From Candidatus Oxydemutatoraceae bacterium (GTDB lineage Bacteria; Pseudomonadota; Gammaproteobacteria; Poriferisulfidales; Oxydemutatoraceae): a stretch of DNA of 64,000 nt. Where the stretch lies: positions 352,001 to 416,000 of the forward strand of contig CBDCOZ010000003.1 in NCBI GenBank assembly GCA_965220085.1, read 5' to 3'. A program made the position numbers and the translations under genes. This document shows, piece by piece, positions 7,904-37,757 of the stretch (its first letter is position 1; every line of letters starts with the position of its first letter). Below the pieces are notes generated by a model, which saw nothing but the letters and a program-made list of their open reading frames with translations, had not been told where the DNA came from and ran no database searches.

Positions 7904-7975
7904 CTGCGCCTGCGCCTTTTCCTTCAAGACCCTTGCAATAATGCGAGTATCCTGCGGCGGAGAAGGGGAGTATTG
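7904..7975 (+). pseudogene. Relic 3' end of a fifth LRLRLFLEG-tailed surface protein gene
   Basis: CTGCGCCTGCGCCTTTTCCTTCAAGAC (LRLRLFLQD) followed by GCGAGTATCCTGCGGCGGAGAAGGGGAGTATT, matching 10066-10137. Confidence 0.8.
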
Positions 7976-8014
7976 TGAGGTCACACAAGGGGTTGAGACA
8001 GGCTACAAAAAGGA

Positions 8015-8196
8015 GCTTGCAAATGATTTGCTTTATGGTATAGTGCGACATTCCTTGTAAATTGCGTTTGCTAAACACAGGAGGTACTGGTATTTGCAAA
8101 TGACTCGCACTTTGTGATAGAACACGGTGCTAAGAGTATGGCGCTCATTGAACAACTGTGTTCGCGAGGTGCGGATTAGACATCGGGAGTAAAACC
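8015..8196 (+). promoter_or_regulatory. Upstream regulatory region of surface protein 1; near-identical copy at 11264-11445
   Basis: ~180 bp direct repeat at offset 3249; sigma70-like TTGCAA-N16-TATAGT; GGGAG RBS before ATG 8197. Confidence 0.7.
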
Positions 8197-10104
8197 ATGA
8201 AAATAATGAAACATATGAAACGACAAATTTTTAATACCATGCCCCCCTCCCCCCCCCCCCCCCCCCCCCGCTATATAAATAAGGGGATTGCGGTCGCTTG
8301 GCTGTATCGCCTCGCCGCCCGCTTTCTGAAAGTACTCCGCTCCTTCCCCCGCTGGCGGGCAACGATGATGCGGCGTAGCCTCCGGTTGTTGGTCCTGTGT
8401 CTGGCATTGGGCGCGACACAGGCCAACGCTCAAGCCGCGGACACCAGCGTTAATATTGTCCTTGGCAACGGCGATTATACTTTTCTACCGACCGACTTCC
8501 CCGGCTTCACAGGCAGCGCCGCCCTGTACATTGATAGCTTGCCTGAGCGTGGCACCCTTTTCTTTGAGTTTAACGGCGTTCCCGACAGTCTCGTCGGCAA
8601 GACCGGTCGTGATAACCTTGATGCTCAGTCATTCTTCCCATCGGATTTTTTATCTGCCAGTTCCCACAGGCTCAAATACACCCCGCCAACTGGCGTCATC
8701 TCTTCTGCCACCGTTGCCAGTTTTGACTTCACTATTGAAGCATCAGGTGTTGTTACCACCGCCACCATGACCATCAACTTGGTGGGGGCATTCGTTGATG
8801 TTGACTTTGGCGGCGGCGCTTATACTTTTCTACCGACCGACTTCCCCGGCTTCACAGGCAGCGCCGTCCTGTACATTGATAGCTTGCCTGAGCGTGGCAC
8901 CCTTTTCTTTGAGTTTAACGGCGTTCCCGACAGTCTCGTCGGCAAGACCGGTCGTGATAACCTTGATGCTCAGTCATTCTTCCCATCGGATTTTTTATCT
9001 GCCAGTTCCCACAGGCTCAAATACACCCCGCCAACTGATGTCATCTCTGTCACGACTACCAGTTTTGACTTCAGTATTGAAGCATCAAGTGTTGTTACCA
9101 CCGCCACCATGACCATCAATCTGGTGGGAGCATCCACGCAGATGGCCGCCAGCGGTGCGCCCACGGTAGATGCCGCCATGGGCACAGCCTATAACACCAA
9201 TGTGCCGCTGACCGCATCCATCACCGGTGTGACGGAGCGCAACGGCATCAATGTAAGCACCCTAGTCTGGAAGTGGCAACAGGCCGACGCCCCCGCCAGC
9301 GGCGCCCCTGCAACCAGTGCTTACAGCGACATAGCGGGTGCTACGGCAACTGGTGTTACTTCCTCCGACTTCACGCCGCTTGCCGCACAGGCGGGCAAGT
9401 ACCTGCGGGTTTGCGCTTCGTTCATGGATCAGTTCTCAACCCCCGCATCGGGCGAGCGATGCAGTGCCGGCAGTTTGGTAGCCAATGCGCCTTTCTTTGG
9501 CGATGCATCAGTGGATGACCAGTTCTGGGTGCTTGGCACCGCACTCAATCTGGTATTGCCCGAGGCCACAGGCGGCAATGGCGCTATCACCTACAGCCTG
9601 ACTCCCTTGACACTACCCACGGGAATCAGTTTCACCGCCTCATCCCGCATCCTCAGCGGTACGCCTACGGCGGCAAAGGTGGCGGCCACCTATACTTACA
9701 CCGCCACCGACACCGACGGCGATACGGCTACGCTGACCTTCCGCATAGAGACGGGCGCGGATGCGGCGCCGGCTTTTGCCGCCAATGCCGCCAATGCCGC
9801 CATCGCCGAACAGACTTGGCTTACCGGCACCGCCATAACCGACCTGACCCTGCCTGCGGCTACCGGCGGCAATGGTGCGCTGACCTATGCCCTGACCCCG
9901 GAACTGCCTGAGGGCCTGAGTCTGGATCCCGCCACCCGCACCATCAGCGGTATCCCCACGGCGGCGCCGCAGAGCAACTATACCTGGACAGTAGCGGATG
10001 CCGACAACAACACTGCAAGCGGCGATACGGCCAGCCTGACCTTCAGCGTCATCTCAAATCTGCGCTTGCGCTTGCGCCTCTTTCTTGAGGGGTCGTTGCG
10101 ATAG
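8197..10104 (+). CDS. Secreted Ig/cadherin-like surface protein 1 with LRLRLRLFLEGSLR tail
   Basis: Signal peptide ending ATQANA-Q; duplicated 115 aa N-terminal domain; two putative-Ig (He_PIG-like) repeats LP.ATGGNGA.TY.LTP.LP.G.S....R..SG.PT; C21 tract at 8249-8269 in frame. Confidence 0.85.
   Translation: MKIMKHMKRQIFNTMPPSPPPPPPRYINKGIAVAWLYRLAARFLKVLRSFPRWRATMMRRSLRLLVLCLALGATQANAQAADTSVNIVLGNGDYTFLPTDFPGFTGSAALYIDSLPERGTLFFEFNGVPDSLVGKTGRDNLDAQSFFPSDFLSASSHRLKYTPPTGVISSATVASFDFTIEASGVVTTATMTINLVGAFVDVDFGGGAYTFLPTDFPGFTGSAVLYIDSLPERGTLFFEFNGVPDSLVGKTGRDNLDAQSFFPSDFLSASSHRLKYTPPTDVISVTTTSFDFSIEASSVVTTATMTINLVGASTQMAASGAPTVDAAMGTAYNTNVPLTASITGVTERNGINVSTLVWKWQQADAPASGAPATSAYSDIAGATATGVTSSDFTPLAAQAGKYLRVCASFMDQFSTPASGERCSAGSLVANAPFFGDASVDDQFWVLGTALNLVLPEATGGNGAITYSLTPLTLPTGISFTASSRILSGTPTAAKVAATYTYTATDTDGDTATLTFRIETGADAAPAFAANAANAAIAEQTWLTGTAITDLTLPAATGGNGALTYALTPELPEGLSLDPATRTISGIPTAAPQSNYTWTVADADNNTASGDTASLTFSVISNLRLRLRLFLEGSLR
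8476..9130 (+). repeat. Intragenic tandem duplication, 2 x 345 bp, near-identical
   Basis: TATACTTTTCTACCGACCGAC at 8476 and 8821; YTFLPTDFPGF...TTATMTINLVGA occurs twice. Confidence 0.95.
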
Positions 10105-10179
10105 CGCGAGTAACCTGCGGCGGAGCAGGGGAGTATTACGGGGCGCAGACAAGGGGAGCGAGGCAGGATATACAGGCGC

Positions 10180-11260
10180 TGCATAATGCCAGAAACATTC
10201 TGGATTCTTGGCTTCAACAACAAACGTAGCCGACATGCAATATCAACACATCGGCCACGGCATCAAAGGTTTCTATAAAATAGCTGCTTTTTCAATAGAC
10301 GAGGCAACTATGAGCTATAAAGCAAAACAGAAACTTGAAGCCCTTATATTATGGGAGAACCACAACATAAAAGCCAGCATGGACGCTTACCACATCAGCA
10401 AATCATCGCTCTATGAGTGGCGGAGACAATATCGGCTTTATGGCATTAACGGCTTAATCAATCAGAGCACTTGCCCGCGCCAGCCACGCCGGCGCGACTG
10501 GCCTGAGGAGATTATCGACGAGATTCGGCGACACCGCGAAAACTATCCCTACGGCGCACCCAAGATATACCTGCTGATTCAACCGTGGTGTGACGAGCGC
10601 GGCTTGCGTTGTCCCAAGCCGCGCACCATCGCGCGACTGATTGCCGGCGAAGCCGATAAGATGCGCTGGGTGCCCGCAAAACCGCGTCGGCAACGCACAA
10701 CGCAAAGCAAGCGCAAGCACCGTCTTAAAAAGGGTTCCAAGGCCACGTATCCCGGGTATTGCATCGCTATGGATACCGTGCAACGATTTATTCAAGGTCA
10801 TCGCCGTTATCTGTTCACGGCCGTAGATTTGTATAGCCGGTTTGGTTTTGCTATCGGCGTCCCACGTGGCAACAGCATCGCTGCCGAGTTCTTTATGAAG
10901 TTGGTGATGCAAGTGTTTCCCGCCAAGATAGAGCAAGTGCTCACCGACAACGGCTCCGAATTCTGCGGCGCGTTTGATCGCTGCTTGCAAGAGCAGGGCA
11001 TCCGGCACTGCTACACGTATCCCAAATGTCCGAAGATGAACGCATTCAACGAACGCTTTAACCGCACACTCCAGGAAGAGTTTGTGGAGTTTGAAGAGGG
11101 TTTGTTGCTGACCGATATTCAGGCATTCAATGATCGTATGATAGACTATCTGTCATGGTTTAATACCCAACGACCACACTATGGATTGAGGCTCCAAACA
11201 CCTATGAAACAAATTGCACAACATTTGCCCAAAGTTTCCAATATGTACTGGCATCATACA
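10180..11260 (+). mobile_element. IS481-family-like insertion sequence with 5 bp target duplication GGCGC
   Basis: Imperfect terminal IRs TGCATAATGCCAG / CTGGCATCATACA; GGCGC at 10175-10179 and 11261-11265. Confidence 0.85.
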
Positions 11261-11275
11261 GGCGCTTGCAAATGA
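10235..11275 (+). CDS. DDE transposase (integrase core domain)
   Basis: N-terminal HTH; MDT...VLTDNGSEF...NERFNRTLQEE...RPH; stop codon lies outside the right IR. Confidence 0.93.
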   Translation: MQYQHIGHGIKGFYKIAAFSIDEATMSYKAKQKLEALILWENHNIKASMDAYHISKSSLYEWRRQYRLYGINGLINQSTCPRQPRRRDWPEEIIDEIRRHRENYPYGAPKIYLLIQPWCDERGLRCPKPRTIARLIAGEADKMRWVPAKPRRQRTTQSKRKHRLKKGSKATYPGYCIAMDTVQRFIQGHRRYLFTAVDLYSRFGFAIGVPRGNSIAAEFFMKLVMQVFPAKIEQVLTDNGSEFCGAFDRCLQEQGIRHCYTYPKCPKMNAFNERFNRTLQEEFVEFEEGLLLTDIQAFNDRMIDYLSWFNTQRPHYGLRLQTPMKQIAQHLPKVSNMYWHHTGACK

Positions 11276-11445
11276 TTTGCTTTATGGTATAGTGCGACAT
11301 TCCTTGTAAATTGCGTTTGCTAAACACAGGAGGTACCGGTATTTGCAAATGACTCGCACTTTGTGATAGAACGCGGCGCTAAGAGTACGGCGCTCATTGA
11401 ACAACTGTGTTTTCGAGGTGCGGATTAAACATCGGGAGTAAAACC

Positions 11446-13108
11446 ATGAAAACCATGAAACCTATGAAGCGAAAAATATTTAATACTACCACTTTAATAC
11501 TGACCCCCCCCCCCCCCCCCGCCGCGCTATGTAAGTAAGGGGATTGCGGTCGCCCGGCTGTATCGCCTCGCCACCCGTTTTCTGCCACCATCATATTACA
11601 GATTTGCCACCCGCCGCAGTGCGGTTGCGTTGTCTGGTTGCGCCGGGCTACGGCTTGCGCTGTGGCGACGGCTTGTCGCGCTCTTCGCGCCCGCACTGGC
11701 GGCACCGCCGACTGATAGGGTTGCGACCGGGGCCGCCACGCTCTGCCTGCTGACCCTGGCATTGGGCGCGACACAGGCCAACGCTCAAGCCGCGGACACC
11801 AGCGTTGATGTTGCTATTGGAAGCAGTGGATATGCACTCAAGAAAACAGACTTCGGCGGTTTTGCCAGCCAATCGCTGGTGGTCTACAACCAACCCACTC
11901 ATGGCAGGCTGTTTGATACCACTCTTAGGGAAGACGTGAGGGTGCGAGCGGCAGGGTTTCAATTTAGTGATTTATCTGTATATTTCGCGATCAGTTTCGC
12001 CGATGGAGCCGGGCCTGTCGAATACAGGCCCCCGGCCACTGCCATCTCTGTCGTCAACGGTTATGACAGCTTCATCTTTGAGTTACACGATTCCAACGGC
12101 GATACCACCACGGCCACCATGACCATCGATCTGGTGGGAGCATCCACGCAGATGGCCGCTGGCGGTGCGCCCACAGTGACGGCCGCCATGGGCACCACCG
12201 CCTATAACACTGGCGTGCCGCTCACGGCATCCATAACCGGTGTGACAGACCCCAACGGCATCGATGTCGCCACCCTGAAATGGCAGTGGAAGCAGGCCGA
12301 TGTTACAGGCATTGGCGCCAATGCAATCAGCGCCTACAGCGATATAGCGGGCGCCACTGCCACAGGTGTCACTTCCTCAGGGTTCACGCCGCTTGCCGCA
12401 CAGGCGGGCAAGTACCTGCGGGTTTGCGCTTCGTTCATGGATCAGTTTTCCACCCCCGCATCCGCGGTGCGATGCAGCACTGGCGTGCTGGTGACCAATG
12501 TGCCTTTCTTTGGCGATGCCTCGGTAGATAATCAGGTTTGGGTGACTGGCACGGCCATCACCGACCTGATTCTGCCTGCGGCGACCGGCGGCAATGGCGC
12601 TGTCACCTACAGCCTGACTCCGTCCCTGCCCGCGGGCCTCAGTTTCACCGCAGCCACCCGCACCATCAGCGGTGCCCCTGCCGCTACGGTCGCCAAGACC
12701 ACCTACACCTACGCCGCCACCGATACCGACGGCGATACGAATACGCTGACCTTCCGCATAGAGGCCGCCGTCAATGCGGTACCAGCCTTTGCCGCCAATG
12801 CCGCCATCGCCGAGCAGACTTGGCTTACCGGCACAGCCATCACCGCCCTGACCCTGCCTGCGGCTACCGGCGGCAATGGCACTTTGACCTATGCCCTGAC
12901 CCCGGCGCTGCCTGCGGGCCTAAGTCTTGATGCCGCCACCCGCACCATCAGCGGCACACCTACGGCAGCGCCGCAGAGCAACTATACCTGGACGGTAGCG
13001 GATGCCGACAACAACACTGCGGACACCGATGCGGCCAGCCTGACTTTCAGCGTCATCTCAAATCTGCGCTTGCGGTTGCGCCTCTTTCTTGAGGGCCCGC
13101 TACGATAG
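11446..13108 (+). CDS. Secreted Ig-like surface protein 2 with LRLRLRLFLEGPLR tail; frameshifted (OFF) at a C17 tract
   Basis: ATG 11446 is homologous to ATG 8197; C17 at 11504-11520 leads to TAA at 11536-11538; the paralog-like frame (PRYVSKGIAV...) resumes at 11522 and continues into ORF 11630-13108. Confidence 0.82.
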
Positions 13109-13165
13109 CGCGGGTGACCTGCGGAGCAGGGGAGTGTCGCGGGGCGCAAGGGGGTGAGGATACAA

Positions 13166-13383
13166 ATGAACGCATTCAATGAACGCTTGTCACCTCTTCG
13201 GGAAGCGTTTGTGGAATTGAAGCGGGTGTGTTGCTGACGACCTGCGGACATTCCGCGATCGTCGGGAGACTATCCGCTATGGTTTGACACCCCCGCGAGG
13301 GGATTACACTGCCAAAGCTCCCAGCGCCCGTGACACGGCACAACATCTGCCCCCGTGTCCGCTATGTCTTGGCTCCTGCGACA
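13166..13383 (+). mobile_element. Degenerate right-half remnant of the IS481-like element
   Basis: ATGAACGCATTCAATGAACGCTT, GTTTGTGGA, TGTTGCTGAC, GACTATC, GCACAACAT(C/T)TGCCC and TCC..TATGT..TGGC are colinear with 11036-11260. Confidence 0.8.
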
Positions 13384-13446
13384 CCTTGTATAAGCGGATA
13401 AATCGGGTACACTTTGCTCTTGATACTCGCCTCGTGCAACCATATT

Positions 13447-14973
13447 GTGAACAACCGCGTTAAAAAAACATTGCTGATTATTGTGGACGGTTTCGGCATC
13501 AGCCCCGGCAAGACGAACAATGCGGCTTATCTCGCCGACACGCCGAATCTGGACAAACTATTCGCGCACTATTCGCATACCCAACTCGAGGCTTCGGGCA
13601 CGGCGGTCGGTCTGCCGCCCGGACAGATTGGCAACTCCGAAGTCGGGCACATCACGATGGGTTGCGGTTGCGTGATTGAGCAGGATTTGATGCGGATAAA
13701 CCGGGCGATAGAAGACGGTCGCTTTTTTGATAACCCTTCGCTGACGTTTACGATTAAGAATGCGAAAGAAAGCGACCGTCCGGTTCACTTGCTCGGGCTG
13801 GTCTCCGACGGCGGCGTGCATTCTCATGTCCGCCACTTGCTGGCGCTGATTGAGTTGGTGCGACAACACGGCTGCCGCCCGCTGCTGCACATGATTACCG
13901 ACGGGCGCGATACCCCTCCGCGATGCGCGCGGCAATTCGTTGAACAGGTCGAACCGGCGCTGGCGCAAGCCGGCGGCGGTATCGCAACGATATGCGGGCG
14001 CTATTATGCGATGGATCGCGATCACAGATGGGAGCGAACCGAGAAGGTGTGGCGGGTGTTGGCGCGCGGCGAGGGCGAGCGGGCGGCCTCTGCGACAGCG
14101 GCGATTGAACGATCGTATGCCGCCGATACCGGCGATGAATTTATTCTGCCGACGGTGTTGCCCGCGGCGCAGGCCCTGCGCGGGGACGATCAGGTCATCC
14201 TGTTTAACTTCCGCAATGATCGCCCGCGTCAGTTGGTAAAGGCCTTGACGGTGAGCGCGTTTGACGAGTTTGACCAGGGGGGATGGGACACGGTTCGGGT
14301 GACGACGATGACAGAGATCGACGGCAAGTTTCCTTGTCTGATCGCTTTTGCTCCGGTGCGCCCTAAAACCACGCTGGCGAAAGTCATAAGCGATGCCGGG
14401 CTGAAGCAGTTCCATTGTTCGGAGACCGAGAAATATCCGCATATCACCTTCTTTTTCAACGGCGGCATGGAAGAGCCGTTGCCCGGCGAACAACGCAAAC
14501 TGATACCGTCGCCGAAGGTCGCAACCTATGACCTTGCGCCGGAAATGAGCGCGGCGGAGGTGGCCGATGCCGTGATCGGCGCGTTGCAAGATACGACCAT
14601 GTCTTTTGTCGTGACCAACTTTGCCAATGCCGATATGGTCGGGCATACCGCCGTGCCCGATCCGATTATCAAAGCGGTTGAGACGGTGGACACCCAAGTC
14701 GGGCGAGTGGTCGAGGCCGCTCTTGCGCACGGTTGGACGACGCTGTTGACCGCCGACCATGGCAACTGCGATGAGATGCTGGATCCTGTGACGCAGCAAC
14801 CGAATACCTGCCACACGTCAAACCCGGTGCCGTGCCTGATTATCAGCGAAGAGAAAGTGCCGCCTCTTGCAAGCGGCTACAACATCGGCAGTGTCGCCCC
14901 GACCGTGCTGGACTTGATGGGGCTGGATATTCCGCAGGAAATGGAAGCGCCGTCGGTGCTCGTTGCCGAGTGA
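13447..14973 (+). CDS. gpmI: 2,3-bisphosphoglycerate-independent phosphoglycerate mutase
   Basis: DGFG, GNSEVGH, SDGGVHSH, TDGRD, GRYYAMDRD, ETEKYPH, DMVGHT, TADHGN. Confidence 0.97.
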   Translation: MNNRVKKTLLIIVDGFGISPGKTNNAAYLADTPNLDKLFAHYSHTQLEASGTAVGLPPGQIGNSEVGHITMGCGCVIEQDLMRINRAIEDGRFFDNPSLTFTIKNAKESDRPVHLLGLVSDGGVHSHVRHLLALIELVRQHGCRPLLHMITDGRDTPPRCARQFVEQVEPALAQAGGGIATICGRYYAMDRDHRWERTEKVWRVLARGEGERAASATAAIERSYAADTGDEFILPTVLPAAQALRGDDQVILFNFRNDRPRQLVKALTVSAFDEFDQGGWDTVRVTTMTEIDGKFPCLIAFAPVRPKTTLAKVISDAGLKQFHCSETEKYPHITFFFNGGMEEPLPGEQRKLIPSPKVATYDLAPEMSAAEVADAVIGALQDTTMSFVVTNFANADMVGHTAVPDPIIKAVETVDTQVGRVVEAALAHGWTTLLTADHGNCDEMLDPVTQQPNTCHTSNPVPCLIISEEKVPPLASGYNIGSVAPTVLDLMGLDIPQEMEAPSVLVAE

Positions 14974-15572
14974 GCCCGCTTTATCTGCGCTATTGTGCCG
15001 AGGCTTTGCGGATATGGCGGCGCAACTCTGTGCTGATGCGGCTTAGCGGATAGCCTTTGCGGATGGGAATCAGGGCCTCGCCTTTGGTGACTGTTGCTTG
15101 GTAGGCCCTGCGTAACCGCCTTCTCGTTGCGGGGGGATATTCCGCAGGAAATGGAAGCGCCGTCGGCGCTCGTTGCCGAGTGAGCCTGCGCTTTATCTGT
15201 GCAATCTATTGTGCCGAGGCTTTGCGGATATGGCGGCGCAGTTCTGTGCTGATGCGGCTTAGCGGATAGCCTTTGCGGATGGGAATCAAGGCCTCGCCTT
15301 TGGTGACTGTTGCTTTGTAGGCCCTTTGCAACCGCCTTCTCGTTGCGGGAGGATATTCCGCAGGAAATGGAAGCGCCGTCGGCGCTCGTTGCCGAGTGAG
15401 CCCGCTTTATCTGTGCAATCTATTGTGCCGAGGCTTTGCGGATATGGCGGCGCAGTTCTGTGCTGATGCGGCTTAGCGGATAGCCCTTGCGGATGGGAAT
15501 CAGGGCCTTGCCTTTGGTGACTGTTGCTTGGTAGGCCGCTCGCAACCGCCTTCTCGTTGCGGGAGGATATTC
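14925..15572. repeat. Tandem array, 3 x 210-216 bp; unit = gpmI 3' end + 3' end of the convergent gene
   Basis: GGATATTC at 14925, 15135, 15351, 15565; this 8 bp microhomology is present in both parent genes. Confidence 0.95.
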
Positions 15573-16106: not shown

Positions 16107-16288
16107 TCGCAACGGAAACGGTATTTTACTCCAGTCTGCGCCATTTGCCTTGCTTTGCAAGGTCGTTTCTCCGCCGCTGGCAGGGGGGGCGGGCGGGCGC
16201 GTAATCTCCCGCGCCCGAAGCGGTGTTTCTTTGCCGCTGGCGCACGGGGCGGGCTATGTCATACAATAAGAGCGGAGTTTTATCCGAT

Positions 16289-29215: not shown

Positions 29216-29247
29216 GGTTCCGTCGCTGCCGCTATGCCATGGGCGGC

Positions 29248-29826: not shown

Positions 29827-29894
29827 TGGGCTCGGCTGTAAAAAAGTTTTGAGATTATCGCCATAGTATATATGAGGGGTTTGACAGGGCGGCG

Positions 29895-30644
29895 CTATGA
29901 GGTTTTCAGTTCCAGCACGGATAAGGTCTGTTTGACTTTGTCCCCTTTCCGCCATTCGACTTTGACCGGCAAGAAATGGTGCGCGCTGCTCAGCCAAAAC
30001 ATGCGATCCGCCGTCCCCCGCTTGCGCCGCTCGACTTTGATCGTATCCAAAGCGCCGAGCGCTGTCGCGAGTTGCTCTCTGCCGACAGCGGCAAAATGCC
30101 GTTGCTTGATCCGCCCGCGCGTCAGTATCCGATAGGTCTTGTCAAAGCGCGTGCCGAGCGCGCCGACCTCTTCGGCCAACCGGAGCAGCAAAATGTTTTC
30201 ATCCGTCACATCATCCGTCAGCGCCACCGTGTCTTCCTCGCCCTCGTGTCGCAACAGCGCCTGCTTTTGCGCCCAGTCAAAGCGGTAACTCCGGTTCCTG
30301 CCGGGCTGTTTTGCCACCGCATAGTCGCAGCGCAATGGCAGCAAGATGCCGCGGTCATTGCGCCGCGCGGCGCTGCGGCTGGCAATCTCGCCCGCGAACA
30401 GTTTCCCCGCCAACCCGCCGCCGGTAATCTTGCTATCATATGTCACGATACCGCTGTCGTTTGTGACCCGCACGGTCATGGCGGCGGACGGAAAATCCAA
30501 TGCATACACGGCGGAGAATGACGGCGCGCCGTGATGTGTTTGCGCATGGACAGCCGTCATGACGAATGCAAACAGCGCGATGAAAAGCGCGCCGGAGTCA
30601 CGATTATGCCCGAAGAGAAATTGAATATATGGCAAGTGCTGCAC
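29895..30644 (-). CDS. Exported protein, DUF3108-like
   Basis: Hydrophobic N-terminus, FDW, LATALGALDTIKV..R, FWLS...FLPVK; start uncertain. Confidence 0.65.
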   Translation of the reverse strand: MQHLPYIQFLFGHNRDSGALFIALFAFVMTAVHAQTHHGAPSFSAVYALDFPSAAMTVRVTNDSGIVTYDSKITGGGLAGKLFAGEIASRSAARRNDRGILLPLRCDYAVAKQPGRNRSYRFDWAQKQALLRHEGEEDTVALTDDVTDENILLLRLAEEVGALGTRFDKTYRILTRGRIKQRHFAAVGREQLATALGALDTIKVERRKRGTADRMFWLSSAHHFLPVKVEWRKGDKVKQTLSVLELKTS

Positions 30645-30806
30645 AGTGTGTCGGCAAGTTTTTTCGGCGTTCAAAGCAACGCCCGCCGCCATCGTGATTT
30701 TAGTCGCGGACGACCGCATCAGTTCATCATCGTCGGTCTTGTCTTAACCGCTTTGTTCATCTTCGCCGTGTGGGGGCTGGCGCAAGCCGTCTTGTTGCTC
30801 GTCTAA
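30606..30806 (+). CDS. DUF2970 family small membrane protein
   Basis: SVSASFFGVQS...RDF..G.P..FIIVG pattern. Confidence 0.8.
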   Translation: MPEEKLNIWQVLHSVSASFFGVQSNARRHRDFSRGRPHQFIIVGLVLTALFIFAVWGLAQAVLLLV

Positions 30807-33641
30807 GGCCTGCCAGACAGGGCGCCGACAGAGGCCTTGCCAATCGCAGTATTGGCAGGCTGTTTTTTCATTGCCCCACGCCGGCAACGGTTTTCTGTCC
30901 ATGTAATCGGAATAGATTTCTTCCAGCCGCAGTCGCGCCTGTCGGCAGTAGTCCGCCAGTTCCTCGTCTTTTATCGGCTTTCGCTCGGGGTTTTTGCCGT
31001 CGTCTTTCAGGGCCAGATAAAGCGCCTGCTCGGTATCCTCTGTCAACAAGGCATAGCACGCCAGTTGCACATCTTCGCCGCTCAGAATCATCTTCGTTGC
31101 CGGCACATGGCCGGTCTTATAGTCGGCGATGGATTTTTTGCCGCCGCAATCCATCATCAGGTCTATCGTTCCCGTCAGCGTCAGCCTGTCCTTGATCGCT
31201 TTCGTCTTTTTGGTTTCGCATTCGACGGCGGCAATATCTTTTTCGGCGCTCAAGTTTACAAACCAATCGATGTAGATTGCGGCGAGCGTCCGCGCCTGAT
31301 CAAGCCAGTAGGTATTGGCATAATTCGTATCCGCCGCCGCGCGGAACTTTGCCTCGATGATCTCCTCCGCGACAGTCCGGATGCGGCCGGCATTCTCCGC
31401 GCTCCACCGCGCGCCGGTCTCGGACATATGCGCGTGTAATTCTTGCAGGCATTTGTGCATACGGGTGCCGAACTCTGCCTTGCTCCAGTATTCGCCCGGC
31501 GGCTGTTGCGCGCGCAACTTGAGGCAATATTGCACGAAGAAACGATACGGGCAATCTATCAAAGTCTGGTGTGCGCTCGCGCTGATTTGTTCCGGCCACC
31601 TGCTGCGGGGCGCGGCGGGCGCGGGCATCGTCGGCGCCCGCGGGGTTTTGCCGACACTCTTGTGCTCCGCCAGCGCATGACAGCGCCGGGCTCGTTGCGC
31701 GAGTTCGTCATCTGCCAGACTCTCGTTGTAGGCGAGTTGGTGAAAATCCATGATCGCCCGCAGCCACGGCGACGGCATCATCTGTTGGCTGTCGGATTGG
31801 CGCTGGCAAGTCAGCAACACTCGCGGCGCGCTCTCAAGCAACGCCAGAAACGACAGAAACTGCTCGGCGGTTTTCTGTTCTTGCGTCTCAAGCCCCAACT
31901 CGCAGCGGATTTTTTCGTTCATCAACGGAGTCTGCAAGGCCGGCCAGCGCTTGCCGTCCAGCGCCGCAAAGACCAGCGCATCCGCTCGCCACAGCCGCGC
32001 CTGCCGCGGCGTCATCAGGAGGATGCCGCGGGCGGACGGCGGCAGCACATAGTTGTCGTGTTCAAGGCTGTGCATCAGCCACCCGCGCCAGAAATAAAAG
32101 CCGCCCTCCAGGCGCTCTTCGGCGGCGGCGGTTTGCATATGCCCGAGCATATCGAGCAACTTTTTGCCGGCGGCATCAACGGCCAGGCGTTTGCGCATGC
32201 CGGTCTCTTCCATCGCTTCAAACAACGTCGAGAAATAATGCGTCAACGGCTGTTTGCTTTGGGTCGCGAGCGCTTGCAACTTGGCAAGAACTTCGATGAT
32301 GCGCTGTCCGACCTCCCGCGCATAAGTGATATCGTCATCCGGCAGCGCCCGCAGCAACTCCTCCGCCGTTTGCGGCAACTGCGGCAATTTGGCCAGACAT
32401 CTCTCCAGACTGCCGACCGCGCGCAGCCGTTGATTGGAGGTGATGTCAAACGAAAAGAAAGGCGAACGCATCAGAGTGATCAGCGCGGCGCTGTCAAACT
32501 GCCCCCTTTCGTCGGGCAGCAACTTATACAACGCCGCGGCGGCGCTGGTCGTCGACAGTTCCCATCCGGAGTAGTCTTGCAAGACGAGACCATAGCGGTC
32601 AAACGCCGCCAACATCCTGCGCGTCAGTTTGCGGTCAAGGCTGACGATGCCGATTTTTTCGCAACCTTGCTCCATCCAATCCTTTATCGCCAGATAAGCC
32701 CCCCACGCGTGTTGCTCAAAAGACGCCGGCTGAAACACCCGCAGGCGACCGGCGGCGGGGCTATCCGGCGTTGCTGCGGCAAACGCTTTGGCGCGCGTTT
32801 GCAGCGGCTCGGCTCGGTCGGCAAAAACCGCCTCAAAAAAGCGCGAGAAGTCGCCGCTCGCCGCGGGCGGTGTGATGTCCTCGCCGCAGATATTCATCGC
32901 CGTTTGGCGCGCCGGGTTGGGGTAACGCAACGGCTGTTTGGTATCTTGCAGCAGCAGCGTCAGGCGATTTTGCGCATACAACTTCCGCGCCCAGCGCGTC
33001 TGACACGGGGTCAGCTTGTCCGTCCCGCACAGATAGATATGCTCGTCTTCGGCGGTCAGCGCATCCTCGATGAACGCCATGCGCTCAAGCCGATGCGGGT
33101 CGTCGTCGCCGTCGCTGATCAAGTCTTTCCACACTTTCCACAGCGCCAGAAACATGTTGCTATCGTCGTTCCACACATCCTGCTTGAGGTTGCGCAAGTC
33201 CCGCTCCAGCATCGCGATGTCATACTCGCCGCTGTCGCTCAATTCGCTGATCTCATTGAACAGGCTCAGCAATGCATCGGTCGCTTGCCACGGGCTCTGG
33301 TTGGGAAACAGGTCGGGGTGTTCGGCCAGAGCGTGTGCGAACGCCAGTTGCTCGCGCCGCGCCGTGACTTCGGTTTTTGAACTTGCCAGACAGCGGTCGA
33401 CAAACAAGCCGCGCACGGTCGTAATCGTCGGCGGGATGACAGCGCCGTAGCCCCTTTGTTGTGCGCAGGCGAGTATTTCGGAGCGCAACACGACAAATTG
33501 CGCTTTGATTCGGCGCAGCGCATCGGGCAACAGGATGACCGCGCCGCTTAAGTCGGGCAGGCGCTCCTCAAAATCGGCGACGACCGTCTCGCCGCACTTG
33601 GCAATCAGATTATCCTCAAAGGGGATGGCGTAGCGGGCCAC
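30744..33641 (-). CDS. AddB-like helicase/nuclease subunit (PD-(D/E)XK)
   Basis: C-terminal CPYRFF...GTIDL...ADYKTG...QL..Y...CQYCDWQGLC Fe-S staple nuclease; 965 aa. Confidence 0.85.
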   Translation of the reverse strand: MARYAIPFEDNLIAKCGETVVADFEERLPDLSGAVILLPDALRRIKAQFVVLRSEILACAQQRGYGAVIPPTITTVRGLFVDRCLASSKTEVTARREQLAFAHALAEHPDLFPNQSPWQATDALLSLFNEISELSDSGEYDIAMLERDLRNLKQDVWNDDSNMFLALWKVWKDLISDGDDDPHRLERMAFIEDALTAEDEHIYLCGTDKLTPCQTRWARKLYAQNRLTLLLQDTKQPLRYPNPARQTAMNICGEDITPPAASGDFSRFFEAVFADRAEPLQTRAKAFAAATPDSPAAGRLRVFQPASFEQHAWGAYLAIKDWMEQGCEKIGIVSLDRKLTRRMLAAFDRYGLVLQDYSGWELSTTSAAAALYKLLPDERGQFDSAALITLMRSPFFSFDITSNQRLRAVGSLERCLAKLPQLPQTAEELLRALPDDDITYAREVGQRIIEVLAKLQALATQSKQPLTHYFSTLFEAMEETGMRKRLAVDAAGKKLLDMLGHMQTAAAEERLEGGFYFWRGWLMHSLEHDNYVLPPSARGILLMTPRQARLWRADALVFAALDGKRWPALQTPLMNEKIRCELGLETQEQKTAEQFLSFLALLESAPRVLLTCQRQSDSQQMMPSPWLRAIMDFHQLAYNESLADDELAQRARRCHALAEHKSVGKTPRAPTMPAPAAPRSRWPEQISASAHQTLIDCPYRFFVQYCLKLRAQQPPGEYWSKAEFGTRMHKCLQELHAHMSETGARWSAENAGRIRTVAEEIIEAKFRAAADTNYANTYWLDQARTLAAIYIDWFVNLSAEKDIAAVECETKKTKAIKDRLTLTGTIDLMMDCGGKKSIADYKTGHVPATKMILSGEDVQLACYALLTEDTEQALYLALKDDGKNPERKPIKDEELADYCRQARLRLEEIYSDYMDRKPLPAWGNEKTACQYCDWQGLCRRPVWQALDEQQDGLRQPPHGEDEQSG

Positions 33642-33647
33642 GGAGTG

Positions 33648-33971
33648 TCAGCGTTCCAGCAGTTTCAACTTGTCCGGTTTCCCTTTCCACGCATCGGCAT
33701 CGGGGGGAGCGTCTTTCTTGACTGTGATCACCGGCCACTGCAAAGACAAGTCCGCATTCAGTCGCAAGAAAGGTTTCTGTTCGTCCTTGAGGTCGTCTTC
33801 CGACAGGATGGCATCGATCGGGCATTCCGGTTCGCACAGCGAGCAGTCGATACACTCTTCGGGGTCGATCACCAAAAAGTTCGGCCCCTCGTGAAAGCAA
33901 TCGACCGGGCAGACCTCGACACAATCTGTGTATTTGCACTTGATGCAGTTTTCGGTAACGACAAAAGTCAT
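33648..33971 (-). CDS. fdxA: 7Fe ferredoxin
   Basis: [26 protein letters not shown]...[12 protein letters not shown]. Confidence 0.96.
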
Positions 33972-34234
33972 GATTCATAAAGACGAACGCGCCTATTGTA
34001 TATAGAATGGCGCGCGCTTCCAACTGCCGGAGCGTATCGCGGGCTCTGTGCCCGGCCTTCTCGCTGCTCCTGCGGATATGGCGGGGGTGTGGCGTATGGC
34101 GCAAGGGAACGCCGATAGAAGGGGGAATATATGCTTGACTCCGCCTAGCCGACGAGGGGCATTGTTGCAAAAGGGCTTGTCTGCGGTAGAATAACCGCTG
34201 ACTTATTTTACATACTGCTATCAAGAACAATACT

Positions 34235-35749
34235 ATGAGTTATCGGATGCCTTCTCCCAGCCGTCGCGCAAGCGGCCTCTGGTTGTTTCTTCTGTTTGTG
34301 TTGTGCGGTCAAGCACAAGCACAGAACATTGCCGCTACCGGCGAACCCGGCGTCACAGCGGCCGACAACACCAACCTGACTACGATGGGCCCCAAAGAGG
34401 ACAGTGTGCTGACCGCAGTTCGAGGCAGCATTAACGATGACAATGACTTAACCACTTTCACGCCGACTTGGCAATGGAGCATAGCCGACACCAGTGACGG
34501 CGCCTACGCCGACATCAGCACGGCGACCGCCGCCACCTTCACGCCCTTGCAGGAGCATGTCGGCAAGTTCGTCCGCGCCTGTGCCACCTTCAACGATGAC
34601 GACAACAACCGCGAGACCCGTTGCTGGACCTCCGTCGCCGCCGTCGTCAATGTCAATGATGCCCCGGTTGCATCGAACAACACCATCTTTGTGCCAGTGG
34701 GCGGCACTTATACCTTCTCGGCGGGCGACTTCCCGTTCACCGATGAAGATGGCGATGCGCTGTCGCAGGTAATCTTCGGCACTGTTGGTGCGGGCAGCAC
34801 AACTCTATCGGGCAGCGATGTTAACCCAATTGGAAATGCATCAGATGGAGTTCTAGCGTCGGGTATTGTGGGATATGCACCCGCAACCGGTGCCACCACA
34901 GTCATGGCACCTTACACCACCTTTACCTTCAGCGTATCCGCAGGGGGCATAACGGGTGGCGACGCCAGTGCCAATGTCACCATGACCATAGACCTGGTGG
35001 CGGCCACGCAAGCGGCGGCAACCGGCGCGCCGACTGTGACAGCAGCATCGGGCAGCACAGCCTACAACGAGGATGTGGAACTGACCGCATCCGTCACCGG
35101 CGTCACCGATGCCAACGGCATAGTCACCCACACCCGCAACTGGCAATGGCAATCCGCCGCCGCTCAGGCCAGCACCTACACCGCCATCGCCGGGGCCGCC
35201 GCCGCCAAATTCACACCCGAGTCGGAACATGTCGGCCGATACATCCGCGTCTGTCTCAGTTTCACCGACGGCATAGGCACCAACGAGGGCCCGTTGTGCT
35301 CCGTCGGCACCGTCATCGCCGCTACCAATGATGCCCCTGCCAGTGGCGACAGTTCGGTGGATGTGCCGCTCACCGCCACCGCAGCCGATCCCTACGTCTT
35401 TCAGGCCTCCGACTTCCCGTTCATGGACGAGGAGGATGGTACCACCCTGCACGGCGTAGACATAATCAGCGCCGTCGCAACCGGCAAGGGCACGTTGCGC
35501 TATACAGACATGACCGGCACCCTGAGCGGTAGAGACCTCGAAGACGGCAACCTGACCGCGGCCAAACTATCAGGTCTCACCTATTATCCCCCGGCCACCG
35601 CCGTCGCTGGCCCCAACTTTGCCACTTTCACCTTCAGAGTGAGCGATGCCGACGGCGGCAGAAGCGAGAACCATACGATGACCATCAACCTGATATCTGT
35701 CGATATACGCTTGCGCCTGCGCCTCTTCCTGGAAGGCCCGCTACGATAG
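34235..35749 (+). CDS. Secreted cadherin/Ig-like surface protein 3 with IRLRLRLFLEGPLR tail
   Basis: Signal peptide (GQAQA-Q); two A-B module pairs (WQW...FTP...VGK..R.C..F.D and NDAP...F...DFPF.DED...FTF.VS...MTI.L). Confidence 0.87.
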   Translation: MSYRMPSPSRRASGLWLFLLFVLCGQAQAQNIAATGEPGVTAADNTNLTTMGPKEDSVLTAVRGSINDDNDLTTFTPTWQWSIADTSDGAYADISTATAATFTPLQEHVGKFVRACATFNDDDNNRETRCWTSVAAVVNVNDAPVASNNTIFVPVGGTYTFSAGDFPFTDEDGDALSQVIFGTVGAGSTTLSGSDVNPIGNASDGVLASGIVGYAPATGATTVMAPYTTFTFSVSAGGITGGDASANVTMTIDLVAATQAAATGAPTVTAASGSTAYNEDVELTASVTGVTDANGIVTHTRNWQWQSAAAQASTYTAIAGAAAAKFTPESEHVGRYIRVCLSFTDGIGTNEGPLCSVGTVIAATNDAPASGDSSVDVPLTATAADPYVFQASDFPFMDEEDGTTLHGVDIISAVATGKGTLRYTDMTGTLSGRDLEDGNLTAAKLSGLTYYPPATAVAGPNFATFTFRVSDADGGRSENHTMTINLISVDIRLRLRLFLEGPLR

Positions 35750-35934
35750 CGCAAGCAATCCTCTTGCGGGACTTGCACCGACGCTCCTTGGGGCTGCCTA
35801 GCGGTAGTTTGGCGATAGCTACCCTAAGAAGTCACAAACAATCTAAAAAGCCACAAACAATTAAGTATTGTTTGTGCTCTATAAACTGTTTGTGCTCCTA
35901 TTACGCGCTCTCTTTCAGTTTGTGCTCCATAACA

Positions 35935-36425
35935 TGCCTCTCGCACTATCCCGCAAGCTCCGGAGAAAAGGTGCGACTGGCGCAACCCCGAAGCTTTCTG
36001 GCCCATCGCTTGTGGCTCGGCTTTTGCGCCTCCCGCAAGGAGCGTGTCGCCAGCGCAACCCCGAAACCCTCCTATCGCACTATCCCGCAAGCGCCGGAGA
36101 GAAGGTGCGACTGATGCAACCCCGAAGTTCTCCGCCTATCGCCTGATGGCTCGGCCTTTGCGACTCCTGTGAGGGGAGTGTGTCGCCGGTGCAAGCATGA
36201 AACTTTCTGCCTATCGCCTGTGGCTCGGCCTTTGCGACTCCCGCGAGGGGAGTGTCGCCGGTGCAAGCATGAAACTTTCTGCCCATCGCCTGATGGCTCG
36301 GCTTTTGCGCCTCCTGCGAGAGGGGCGTGTCGCCAGCGCAACCCGAAACCCTCCGCCCATCGCCTGTGGCTTGGCCTTTGCGACTCCTGCGAGGAGGGCG
36401 TGTAGCCGGCGCAACCCCAAAACTT
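35935..36425. repeat. Composite hairpin-rich repeat block (REP/BIME-like, ~72-74 bp units) downstream of surface protein 3
   Basis: Recurring GGCTCGGCCTTTGCGACTCC..GGAGTG(TG)TCGC and TCGCACTATCCCGCAAGC.CCGGAGA.AAGGTGCGA; 36001-36280 resembles 37790-38075. Confidence 0.85.
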
Positions 36426-36462
36426 GCGTTTGGGGGATAGGTGTGTATAATGCGGGTTTTAT

Positions 36463-36612
36463 TGGAGATGGTCGCACCGTCGGCACAGCGTAACCCAACG
36501 GAATGGGATGTGTGCATGGTGTGGGCTTTGCCAGAGATGACTGGCACCATCGGCATAGTGGAACCCAACAGAATGGGATGTGTGTGTATGGTGCGGGCTT
36601 TGCCGGAGATGG
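36463..36612. repeat. Degenerate tandem repeat, ~2 x 70 bp, upstream of surface protein 4
   Basis: GAGATG..GCACC.TCGGCA..AACCCAAC.GAATGGGATGTGTG..ATGGTG.GGGCTTTGCC occurs twice. Confidence 0.75.
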
Positions 36613-36692
36613 CTGCGCTTGCTTGCAGGGCGTATGCGAATCGTTTATATCGTATGTTTGATGCAAGATACTTTTTAAGGAGGATTAAAATA

Positions 36693-37757
36693 ATGTTTAT
36701 AGCAAATTTTAACACTAAAAATACCCCCCCCCCCCCCTATGCAACATTAAGCAGGCGTAGCCTCTGGTCGCTTCTGTTGTTCGCTCTGTTTACCGTCTGC
36801 GGTCAAGCGCAAGCACAACAGAACGCCACTGGCGCACCGGCGGTCACGGCGGCGGACAGGGCCGCCCGGCGCCCGCAGCGCATCATCTTATGCTTATCCA
36901 ATTCCCCGGCATTTTTCGCCGCAACCCACAGCACCCCGCCCGCCGCAGGCCCCGGCCTCATGCGGACGATGATCCTCCGCGGCTTCTTGCCGCTGATCCT
37001 GCTCCCCCTCGTCATCGCCTGCGGCGAGCTGCAGGCGCAGGACAACGCCACCGGCATGCCCGCCGTCACCTACGCCAGCGGCATAACCGTTCCCACTGAG
37101 GGCTCCGCCATCACCGCAACCCAAGGCACCATAGAAGACCCGGACAATACGCCAACCACCGGCCTCGGTTCCATACAGTGGATATGGAGCCAGGCCGATA
37201 CCAATGGCGGCACCTACACTCCCGTTCACCTCGCAGCCACTTTCACCCCGTTGCAGGCCCATGTCGGCAAGTTTCTGCGGATCTGCGTGAGCTTTCGAGA
37301 CAACACCAACAATGACGAGGAGCGATGCCTGCAGATAGCCACCGCTGTGGCCGCTAATGATGCGCCCACCAGTGACGATGCCTTTGTGAATGCGCTGGCC
37401 ACCGCAACCGCAGACTCGCCATATGCATTCAAGATCGGCGATTTCCCATTCATGGACGAGGACACCGGCGCAGCTCTGACCAGCATAACCATAGTTGAGA
37501 CTATAGCATCCGGCACCGGCACACTCCGCGACGGCAGCACCGCAGTGGCCGATGGCACCACAGTGATGGCCGCCAATCTGAGTGGCCTCACATACTATCC
37601 CCCGGCCAACGCCACCCCCGCCGCCAACTTTGCCAGCTTCACTTTCACCGTCAGCGATGGCGCCGCAGACAGCGCAGATGACTACACCATGACCATCAAT
37701 CTGGTGGAGCATCTGCGCTTGCGGTTGCGCCTCTTTCTGGAAGGCCCGCTGCGATAG
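36693..37757 (+). CDS. Secreted cadherin/Ig-like surface protein 4 with LRLRLRLFLEGPLR tail
   Basis: AAGGAGGA RBS, ATG 36693, C14 tract at 36724-36737 in frame; two successive signal-peptide-like segments; one A-B module pair. Confidence 0.82.
   Translation: MFIANFNTKNTPPPPYATLSRRSLWSLLLFALFTVCGQAQAQQNATGAPAVTAADRAARRPQRIILCLSNSPAFFAATHSTPPAAGPGLMRTMILRGFLPLILLPLVIACGELQAQDNATGMPAVTYASGITVPTEGSAITATQGTIEDPDNTPTTGLGSIQWIWSQADTNGGTYTPVHLAATFTPLQAHVGKFLRICVSFRDNTNNDEERCLQIATAVAANDAPTSDDAFVNALATATADSPYAFKIGDFPFMDEDTGAALTSITIVETIASGTGTLRDGSTAVADGTTVMAANLSGLTYYPPANATPAANFASFTFTVSDGAADSADDYTMTINLVEHLRLRLRLFLEGPLR

Follow-up and report, generated by a model that had tools for sequence, protein, structure and literature searches.

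To our knowledge, the C-terminal sorting tags described in bacteria comprise either a membrane helix that is cut by a dedicated protease or a whole folded domain. The tags known as PEP-CTERM (exosortase), LPXTG (sortase) and MYXO-CTERM (myxosortase) are short and common to many otherwise unrelated surface proteins, and the tail described below shares this 'choice-of-anchor' logic. For the GlyGly-CTERM/rhombosortase system of Vibrio cholerae, the available portion of one report states that VesB lacking its GlyGly-CTERM is released via the type II secretion machinery and loses its surface retention (PMC6219818). Secretion of VesB requires the PDZ domain of EpsC, and the PDZ-dependent signal resides in the Ig fold and not in the tail, according to the accessible part of a second report (PMC12369372). 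Herein we describe a recurrent C-terminal tail that we tentatively judge to be a protein-level surface-sorting tag of new architecture, wherein no membrane helix is present and type II export would be followed by retention on the surface.

Tail-bearing genes in the window

The window is the whole 64-kb stretch of DNA that was analysed. The sequence-only reading had claimed that four ORFs therein share the terminal sequence (L/I)RLRLRLFLEG(P/S)LR followed by a stop codon, and that a relic of a fifth copy lies at position 7904; all were recovered where it had placed them. ORF starts given below are the first start codons, and the earlier gene starts of 8197, 11446 and 36693 differ from these.

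7904..7941, + strand: decayed tail relic, reading LRLRLFLQDP...
8158..10104, + strand: tail-bearing ORF 1, 648 aa counted from the first start codon
10060-10101, + strand: ORF 1 tail, with its TAG stop at 10102-10104
10105..10207, + strand: conserved element of ~100 nt, directly 3' of the tail 1 stop
10208..11275, + strand: putative transposase-like ORF of 355 aa, lying between ORFs 1 and 2
11630..13108, + strand: tail-bearing ORF 2, 492 aa, He_PIG paralogue of ORF 1
13064-13105, + strand: ORF 2 tail, then TAG stop
34235..35749, + strand: tail-bearing ORF 3, 504 aa, Ig/cadherin-like modules
35705-35746, + strand: ORF 3 tail, then TAG stop
36441..37757, + strand: tail-bearing ORF 4, a partial paralogue of ORF 3, 438 aa counted from the first start codon
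37713-37754, + strand: ORF 4 tail, then TAG stop

The C-termini, each ending at the stop codon, are NLRLRLRLFLEGSLR (ORF 1), NLRLRLRLFLEGPLR (ORF 2), DIRLRLRLFLEGPLR (ORF 3) and HLRLRLRLFLEGPLR (ORF 4). In the first protein, two Ig-like domains of the He_PIG type are accompanied by a signal-peptide-like stretch that ends in ...ALGATQANAQA, and the assignment of He_PIG to proteins 1 and 2 is borne out by Pfam (E = 1.6e-17 and 1.6e-19). The description of proteins 3 and 4 as cadherin-like finds only weak backing: all of their Pfam matches fall under the cut-off, and one paralogue passes for Cadherin_4 (26.5 bits versus a cut-off of 25.1). Foldseek comparisons for this protein type gave weak Ig, cadherin and adhesin matches, with none at E <= 0.001. 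ORF 3 has 109 matching stretches across its own genome.

The relic has lost one base and has no upstream ORF, and the ~40 nt on its 3' side are the same as those found after tails 1 and 2. The element that follows tail 1 yields 39 blastn matches in the genome, 13 of which begin right after a tail stop, and it may be the end of the adjoining insertion sequence. The ORF located there, which appears transposase-like from a reading of its sequence, is represented by nine near-full-length genomic copies and 98 fragments of at least 50 nt.

Conservation, portability and distribution of the tail

The tail terminates 216 ORFs in the whole 2.49 Mb genome, and such ORFs occupy ~18.5% of its bases. Matches to RLRxFLEGPLR, written as a degenerate DNA pattern, number 215 in this genome, as against none when the pattern is read backwards, and chance is excluded. 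A stop codon directly follows the motif in 216 of 222 copies (TAG 136, TAA 52, TGA 28) and only two of the 222 read through. Of the 216 tails, 215 finish in Arg and one in Gln. These tails are encoded by 199 distinct 42-nt sequences, yet only nine peptides are found over the last 11 residues, and the differences among them are overwhelmingly synonymous (802 versus 72 non-synonymous). Thus, the tail is selected at the protein level. Nucleotide diversity at codon positions 1, 2 and 3 is 0.22, 0.04 and 0.36, compared with ~0.7 on either flank (14 codons upstream, 42 nt downstream). In 132 of 173 called tail genes, the N-terminus includes a hydrophobic stretch that typically ends in ...CAQAQAQ.

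Many of the properties ascribed to the tail from the window were upheld at the genome scale, beginning with the view that it is a portable module. Thirteen unrelated classes of C-terminal segment precede it (62, 42, 34, 20, 15 and 2 members, plus seven singletons), and the Pfam content of tail proteins is He_PIG, cadherin-like domains or no match. Three proteins carry the motif near the N-terminus; an N-motif protein has domains of the DVUA0089/FxDxF type, from NCBIfam families that are named as PEP-CTERM proteins. The tail also falls outside known families, as had been proposed: a scan of the four full proteins and a 34-residue tail piece against NCBIfam and Pfam left it unmatched at E values up to 1, a setting in which short models are hard to match, and a literature search found its sequence in no paper.

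An AlphaFold2 model of one segment class agrees with the claim that the tail is not the final strand of the preceding domain. This domain is complete without the tail, with its last strand at residues 126-133, and the tail (137-150) is predicted as coil at low confidence (pLDDT ~52-68). The amphipathic beta pattern noted previously proved extreme, with a hydrophobic moment of 3.3 at 180 degrees versus 0.79 at 100 degrees. When 16,613 windows of nine residues were taken from these proteins, only 0.012% had a moment as high. One face of the strand would be entirely Leu and the other Arg/Arg/Arg/Phe/Glu. With 14 residues and at most three consecutive hydrophobic ones, the tail has no membrane helix, and a genome screen for hydrophobic 15-residue C-terminal windows retrieved other proteins but no tail proteins.

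One sister genus has a diverged form of the tail, RL[KR]x[FY]LGGxxR-stop (12 copies in genome G004, 44 in G009 and 2 in G013), and the backwards control of this pattern gave zero. Examination of 37 other relatives revealed neither form, and neither exceeds chance among 400 sampled members of the class. In outside data, proteins with ~33% or no similarity beyond the tail carry it, and the three outside proteins end in Gln in place of Arg. Thus, the tail extends beyond recent paralogues, which the sequence-only reading had named as a limit that could undo its proposal. The two tail-bearing genera are not mutually closest by GspC or rhombosortase identity. Their common core is L-R-[LF]-[RKH]-x-[FY]-L-x-G-x-x-R at a free C-terminus, and both keep the glycine that lies four residues from the end (FLEG, FLGG, YLGG).

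Secretion machinery and candidate functions

The genome (G000) encodes a complete type II operon (gspC-D-A-B-E-F-G-H-I-J-K), TolC, and a rhombosortase that scores 96 bits against a model cut-off of 84 and has intact catalytic Ser and His motifs. Each of the 18 family relatives encodes a type II system, and 15 of these genomes are tail-less; rhombosortase is present in 17 of 18, tail-less ones included. Therefore neither co-varies with the tail. Exosortase was not found in any of the 19 family genomes.

Four trypsin-like homologues offer a comparison of termini. They share 36-41% identity over ~450 residues and the motifs TAYHC, GDYALL and GGSSG. The G004 protein ends in VRLKVYLGGAVR, whereas two from G005 have, at the same position, a Gly run, a hydrophobic helix and terminal basic residues. 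The NCBIfam GlyGly-CTERM model does not match these G005 tails, and therefore we assign them to the GlyGly-CTERM type by inspection. The G000 homologue has no C-terminal tag and carries the motif after its signal peptide. As judged from these sequences, the tail takes the slot of a GlyGly-CTERM-type anchor.

Under our tentative proposal, the tail would direct a range of Sec-exported proteins to the cell surface, namely Ig-like, cadherin-like, PPC, protease and giant repeat proteins. These proteins would probably cross the outer membrane via the type II system, and the tail would then hold them on the surface, by analogy with the action of GlyGly-CTERM on VesB. The likeliest means would be a cationic amphipathic beta-strand held by non-covalent contacts to lipopolysaccharide, to anionic lipid or to some abundant component of the outer membrane. 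However, the near-invariance of FLEGPLR and the selection for an exact end fit better with one specific protein recogniser than with loose lipid binding. Further points count against the proposal: neither the type II system nor rhombosortase co-varies with the tail, the two tail-bearing genera are not closest to each other by the measures above, proteins of 13,000-15,000 residues would need to pass the secretin, and the three copies near the N-terminus would gain a free carboxyl end only through cleavage.

It is also conceivable, if unlikely, that the tail is an export signal that addresses rather than anchors its cargo, and that it is read in the periplasm by the GspC PDZ domain, secretin N-domains or an undescribed translocon. 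Selection for an exact free C-terminus suits domains that bind C-terminal peptides, the C-terminal region of GspC looks PDZ-like from its sequence, and a linear signal would benefit more than 200 structurally different cargoes. The dependence of VesB secretion on the EpsC PDZ domain lends this idea a precedent, but the signal concerned is located in the Ig fold, as given in the same accessible part of that report (PMC12369372). Moreover, all 18 family relatives have GspC, yet 15 of them do not have the tail, and the VesB precedent, by analogy and as far as the available portion of its report extends, is for a C-terminal signal in retention and not transport (PMC6219818).

We consider it improbable that the tail acts as a GlyGly-type signal in miniature (x-G, two residues, R), which rhombosortase would cut at its invariant glycine before attachment of a lipid-like moiety, as for VesB. 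The constancy of that glycine in both genera, the order of glycine, hydrophobic and basic residues that mirrors a three-part signal, and the intact rhombosortase are all consistent with this view. Furthermore, the four tail-bearing genomes give the lowest rhombosortase scores of 18 (93.7 and 115.8-125.8 versus 127-149 bits), a weak ranking that involves two lineages only and that for G000 partly reflects a 22-residue insertion. However, with no membrane helix, nothing would bring the site into an intramembrane protease. Two ordinary Gly-run/helix/basic tails are also retained in G000, one adjoining the rhombosortase gene, and these suffice to explain why the enzyme is kept. The G000 enzyme is no nearer to the g5 enzymes (28-30% identity) than to others (30-41%).

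The sequence-only reading had instead proposed that the tail strand docks the adhesins on a dedicated outer-membrane partner. In this view the strand would pair with, for example, the seam of a barrel or a protein of the Omp85 type, and this partner would hold or translocate the adhesins. A strand of 9-10 residues with an all-leucine face and a polar face does resemble a transmembrane strand of a barrel, and its strong invariance suggests a single protein receptor. Regardless, this idea has a low probability in our estimation, since the search for a dedicated outer-membrane partner or peptidase found none that is specific to tail-bearing genomes. Every candidate tested also occurs in tail-less relatives, including two outer-membrane-like proteins of no known family, and the others are ordinary porins, TonB-dependent receptors, BamA, FadL-like proteins and CopB. 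In addition, the autotransporter beta-domain PF03797 has no whole-genome match at E <= 0.001, a one-to-one receptor would need extreme abundance, and a tail at the N-terminus would have to cross the membrane in the direction opposite to that of a tail at the C-terminus.

Peptides of alternating Leu and Arg are typical self-assembling beta-formers, and all cargoes carry the same tail, such that the tails of adjacent proteins might pair into an intermolecular beta-sheet that would link ~200 protein species together as a surface coat. We judge this very unlikely because the arginine faces would repel without a polyanion and the conserved EGPLR end is left unexplained. Finally, the arrangement of 172 of the 216 tail genes in same-strand arrays, their construction as module mosaics and the insertion-sequence-related element often found 3' of the stop could indicate that the conserved 3' end only serves paralogues as a DNA homology handle when they recombine, or belongs to a mobile element, and that the peptide it encodes is functionless; however, the codon pattern, with almost entirely synonymous variation (802 versus 72) and 199 DNA versions among 216 tails, contradicts this reading, as do the many unrelated classes of downstream sequence and the retention of a diverged peptide of the same pattern in another genus and on otherwise unrelated proteins, and we give it almost no weight.

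Comparison with known sorting systems

Returning to the surface-sorting proposal, it is possible, albeit doubtful, that the tail represents an undescribed class of signal: a helix-free, amphipathic 12-residue Arg/Leu strand at the free C-terminus that retains or addresses type II cargo, and through which a small symbiont genome would display ~200 interchangeable adhesin-like proteins with either no dedicated enzyme or a re-purposed rhombosortase. If so, a helix-free tag of 12-14 residues would be a new solution for the surface retention of secreted proteins in diderm bacteria. The tag would offer a sequence handle for finding the surface proteome of uncultured symbionts and for studying the display of a huge, recombining adhesin repertoire, whose tagged genes make up nearly a fifth of the genome. 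Surface-display constructs might also be possible, if the tag works in other hosts.

Several known systems were compared with the tail. A chaperone-usher donor strand, which works with an usher and a periplasmic chaperone, completes an Ig fold that is otherwise incomplete; the single tail-bearing domain that was modelled is whole by itself. Type I secretion of the RTX type proceeds through TolC, an ABC transporter and a membrane fusion protein and involves no Sec signal peptide, whereas a signal-peptide-like N-terminus is found in 132 of 173 tail genes, and a type Va autotransporter is not indicated, as PF03797 is unmatched in the genome at the threshold above. The BAM beta-signal is likewise a C-terminal amphipathic beta-strand with alternating hydrophobic residues, but it ends in an aromatic residue as the last barrel strand, whereas the tail ends in Arg (Gln in the outside proteins) after soluble Ig-like domains. 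The type IX secretion signal is a folded beta-sandwich domain of ~70-100 residues in Bacteroidota. Like the tail, it is a C-terminal signal on many large surface-bound adhesins and enzymes, but the tail is conserved over only 12-14 residues, is modelled by AlphaFold2 as coil and follows 13 unrelated segments. The Limulus anti-LPS factor loop is an amphipathic, cationic, lipopolysaccharide-binding beta-strand in which basic and hydrophobic residues alternate in a beta pattern, as they do in the tail. This comparison concerns the sequence pattern alone, and such strands are hairpins within folded host-defence proteins, whereas the tail is a tag at the end of bacterial proteins.

The three-part signals (LPXTG, PEP-CTERM, GlyGly-CTERM and MYXO-CTERM) consist of a signature motif, a membrane helix of ~15-20 residues and a basic cluster, an order that the tail does not have. 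Of these, GlyGly-CTERM resembles it in standing at the very C-terminal end of proteins exported by Sec; their exit by type II secretion is described for VesB in the available portion of its report (PMC6219818) and is probable for the tail proteins. The two occupy the same position in the trypsin-like homologues of sister genera, and both include a glycine and a basic end. The tail differs in its length of 12-14 residues, in having no hydrophobic helix and in matching none of the NCBIfam models, and the cleavage and lipid attachment that are features of the VesB signal are not seen for it. Within the same genome, 216 copies of the tail stand beside two ordinary Gly-run tails.

Copies of the tail and what is conserved in them

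The assembly containing the window comprises 2,492,841 bases in three contigs. A six-frame scan of the whole genome for R[LIVM]F[LIVM][EQ]G returned 222 copies, of which 216 are directly followed by a stop codon (TAG 136, TAA 52, TGA 28) and 186 are preceded by an open frame of 150 codons or more, and a degenerate DNA pattern for the tail gave 215 matches forwards and none backwards. Taken from a plausible start, the 216 tail ORFs encode 153,557 residues (18.5% of the genome), and 173 of the 1,848 members of a non-overlapping ORF set carry the tail. Same-strand arrays of at least two account for 172 of the 216 tails, the largest array holding 16. The tail is a real, very large feature of this genome. 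For 24 tails the upstream stretch is shorter than 60 codons; these, 11 of which lie no more than 400 nt from another tail, are relics or tandem duplications. At G000:C3:1303600-1303950, C3:908950-909500 and C3:513700-514250 (G000 being the window's own genome), the final ~120-170 nt of tail genes occur in tandem repeats, which produce chains of short ORFs with the tail closing each.

In the window, the sequence-only reading had described four ORFs that share the tail at the stop codon, and all four are indeed open, with the ends NLRLRLRLFLEGSLR, NLRLRLRLFLEGPLR, DIRLRLRLFLEGPLR and HLRLRLRLFLEGPLR, with TAG coming immediately after each. A fifth relic claimed at 7904 also proved to be present as a degenerate copy (LRLRLFLQDP...) that has one base missing and is not preceded by an ORF; the ~40 nt 3' of this copy are the same as those 3' of tails 1 and 2. 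Directly upstream of the relic lies an ORF (window 6782-7606) that is TatC-like by reading only and has no evident tie to the tail. Tail 1 is succeeded by the following feature:

Window 10105-11275: repeated element and transposase-like ORF, the ORF starting ~100 nt 3' of the tail 1 stop codon

The element between this stop and the ORF has 39 blastn matches in the genome, 13 of which begin right after a tail stop, and the same ~100-nt element lies 3' of tail 2, where a fragment of the transposase 3' part follows. The ORF itself is represented by nine near-full-length copies and 98 fragments, and the insertion sequence or its miniature derivatives may insert preferentially at the conserved end of tail genes. 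Elsewhere in the window, positions 44001-50000 have a GC content of 0.34-0.43 against ~0.58 for the remainder, and are possibly acquired DNA.

The 216 tails comprise 199 distinct 42-nt sequences, and yet their last 11 residues form only nine peptides (RLRLFLEGPLR 149, RLRIFLEGPLR 35, RLRVFLEGPLR 26 and six singletons). Compared with the consensus codons, 802 differences are synonymous and 72 non-synonymous, with Leu/Ile/Val alternation making up 61 of the latter. Diversity at codon positions 1, 2 and 3 is 0.22, 0.04 and 0.36, respectively, compared with values near 0.7 in both flanks (14 codons upstream, 42 nt downstream). The exact end is also maintained: despite the use of TAG, TAA and TGA alike, read-through (into W... 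or Q...) is limited to two copies. Because variation is dominated by synonymous changes and the end is kept, a pure DNA repeat, a mobile-element end or a recombination handle is excluded as the whole story. Stop-codon read-through or recoding was rejected on the basis of the three stop codons in use and the unrelated downstream sequences. The Tat motif has the form RRxFLK, and a Tat-like role for RLRLFLE was rejected given its lack of adjacent arginines and its C-terminal position.

Preceding domains, export and distribution

The proposal that the tail behaves as a portable module is upheld by the 110 residues that precede it, which fall into 13 BLAST-unrelated classes (62, 42, 34, 20, 15 and 2 members, and seven singletons) among the 182 tail proteins of at least 130 residues. 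The tail proteins are mosaics of common modules, such that a single-linkage cluster takes in 170 of them and window protein 3 has 109 matching stretches in this genome. Of the domains originally assigned in the window, He_PIG was recovered by Pfam in proteins 1 and 2, but the cadherin-like assignment of proteins 3 and 4 is reduced to sub-threshold Ig/cadherin-type matches in Pfam and NCBIfam. One paralogue does pass a cadherin-like model, and Foldseek returned adhesin and cadherin matches that are weak only.

When the C-terminal 150 residues of window protein 3 are modelled with AlphaFold2 (12-row alignment, mean pLDDT 71.9), the final domain strand spans residues 126-133, and residues 137-150 are left as coil with pLDDT ~52-68. 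The first nine tail residues have a hydrophobic moment of 3.3 as a beta strand versus 0.79 as a helix, and among 16,613 stretches of nine residues taken from these proteins only 0.012% attain the former value. By sequence, most tail proteins look Sec-exported: in 132 of 173 the N-terminus includes a hydrophobic stretch, often with ...CAQAQAQ at its end. The tail is a conserved, portable peptide tag on exported proteins that ends exactly at the stop codon.

Searches with Pfam and NCBIfam placed nothing on the tail, in agreement with the earlier view of it as a candidate undescribed signal. The strings FLEGPLR, FLEGPL, RLRLFLEG, RLRVFLEG and RLRIFLEG are absent from the full-text literature searched, and a topical literature search yielded nothing relevant to the tail. 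The exact pattern has no locus in two large collections of genome and metagenome contigs, a search that possibly did not include the window's own genome. A 34-position tail profile gave 68 matches at E <= 0.001 among 1.84 billion representative proteins. This profile and a word-index search together yielded 75 proteins, of which 69 are from this genome and the other six are three true tails and three repeat artefacts. All three outside tails end FLEGPLQ; one of these proteins is ~33% identical to the local family, and the other two share the tail only and contain a 'GTEYT' stretch that is FN3-like by reading.

The exact form occurs in none of the 40 relatives searched; homologues in genus g5 carry a diverged form (...ELRLKVFLGGMVR, ...IRLRLKAYLGGATR, ...VRLKVYLGGAVR). 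A looser pattern (R-L-[RK..]-x-[FY]-L-x-G-x-x-R-stop) matches 215 times in G000 and 12, 44 and 2 times in the g5 genomes G004, G009 and G013, with no match in the other 37 relatives or in the backwards control. A sample of 400 additional class members (321 genera) yielded one match in one genome, which we consider chance level given that the backwards control gave single matches in two genomes. When the g5-type tail was used in a word-index search, all proteins recovered were attributable to G004 and G009. When the G000 and g5 forms are compared, the common core is L-R-[LF]-[RKH]-x-[FY]-L-x-G-x-x-R at the C-terminus. In G009:C1:276000-432000 and 2440000-2540000, copies of the diverged tail stand 10-13 kb apart on a single strand, a spacing that points to arrays of giant genes, each closed by the tail; two such proteins contain GLUG and FN3 Pfam domains.

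Natural exchange with GlyGly-CTERM-like ends

Three G000 proteins, two with PPC repeats and one trypsin-like, carry a copy of the tail motif near the N-terminus (L[RK]LRLRVFLEGPLR then GGS), preceded by a common signal peptide and ~22 conserved residues. In NCBIfam, one of the PPC proteins matches the DVUA0089 family at 89 bits and has a weak match to an FxDxF family whose members are named there as PEP-CTERM proteins. The AlphaFold2 model of a 547-residue protein with this N-terminal motif (4-row alignment) has an unusably low mean pLDDT of 47.7 (~25-37 over the motif). Around the genes with the N-terminal motif lie Fic, HicB, Cache and metallo-beta-lactamase-like genes, and no machinery is evident there.

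Homologues of the trypsin-like protein are 36-41% identical over ~450 residues and keep the TAYHC, GDYALL and GGSSG motifs. The G004 homologue, which has a weak Trypsin_2 match (E 3.2e-4, below cut-off), ends in the RL tail. Two homologues from the tail-less relative G005 close, at the same alignment position, with a run of glycines followed by a hydrophobic helix and basic residues, and the G000 protein lacks any tag at its C-terminus. The tail is evolutionarily interchangeable with a known type of surface-anchoring signal. The G005 ends resemble GlyGly-CTERM by appearance, although the NCBIfam GlyGly-CTERM model does not match them; the whole-genome search with this model (TIGR03501) had no match anywhere, controls included, and is hence uninformative. 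Two ordinary tails of the Gly-run/helix/basic kind persist in G000: a 1,369-residue protein adjoining the rhombosortase gene carries one, and the other lies two genes away from an N-terminal-motif protein. In 18 of the 19 genomes of the family, G000 among them, rhombosortase scores above its curated cut-off, and the search for exosortase found none in any of the 19.

Possible routes to the cell surface

We propose that tail proteins would exit through the type II system, whose operon is complete in G000, and that the tail would then hold them on the surface. Binding of its cationic amphipathic strand to lipopolysaccharide, to anionic lipid or to some abundant component of the outer membrane would be the likeliest mechanism. 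Given that the near-invariance and kept free end of the tail favour a specific protein reader, three other explanations are retained.

Alternatively, GspC or the secretin could read the tail as an export signal, which we regard as unlikely. GspC is present in all 18 family relatives, 15 of which are tail-less, the type II system occurs in tail-less relatives too, and a complex prediction for the GspC periplasmic part with a 34-residue tail piece (score 0.00) carries no weight either way.

A miniature GlyGly-type signal cut at its constant glycine by rhombosortase seems to us improbable. The enzyme of G000 is as follows:

G000:C3:474930-475604 (L083:4930-5604): rhombosortase, with a 22-residue insertion after the helix bearing the catalytic serine

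In its favour, the four tail-bearing genomes have the four lowest rhombosortase model scores of 18. However, this ranking represents two lineages only, the low G000 score is owed partly to the insertion (present in none of 17 aligned relatives), and the alignment reveals no special kinship of the G000 and g5 enzymes, the former being no nearer to the latter than to the others. Rhombosortase is also present in tail-less relatives. The arginine of its conserved WR motif is missing in three g5 enzymes.

Docking onto an outer-membrane protein is likewise doubtful: the dedicated partner originally envisaged was not found, and each candidate tested, including two outer-membrane-like proteins without a family assignment (L028, L032) and an O-antigen-ligase/TPR protein adjoining gspC, occurs in tail-less relatives too. 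The autotransporter domain PF03797 has no match in the genome. An out-of-frame stretch behind a tail-less family member (G000:C3:835474-836034; L048:74-634) ends ...LQARVRW, with an aromatic last residue like an outer-membrane barrel; this frame has no Pfam match (E <= 0.01) and one chance-level NCBIfam match at E <= 0.1 (E 0.042, 12 bits versus a cut-off of 792). Apart from the tail family, the large paralogue families of the genome comprise methylases, ABC ATPases, TPR, Sel1, pentapeptide, Fic, IS1595 transposase and a trypsin-like protease family. At G000:C3:189880-221028 and 330328-337636 there are ten paralogous, tail-less secreted proteins of 276-351 residues with a weak Trypsin_2 match and His, Asp and GxSGG motifs, and a third rhomboid-like ORF (209224-210012) lies among them.

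Surface retention by the tail would have a parallel in Vibrio cholerae, where a published study (PMC6219818) states that surface localisation of VesB needs GlyGly-CTERM, rhombosortase and the type II system, and that VesB lacking the GlyGly-CTERM signal is released into the medium. Within the established concept of C-terminal sorting tags, the tail is best classed as a new architecture.
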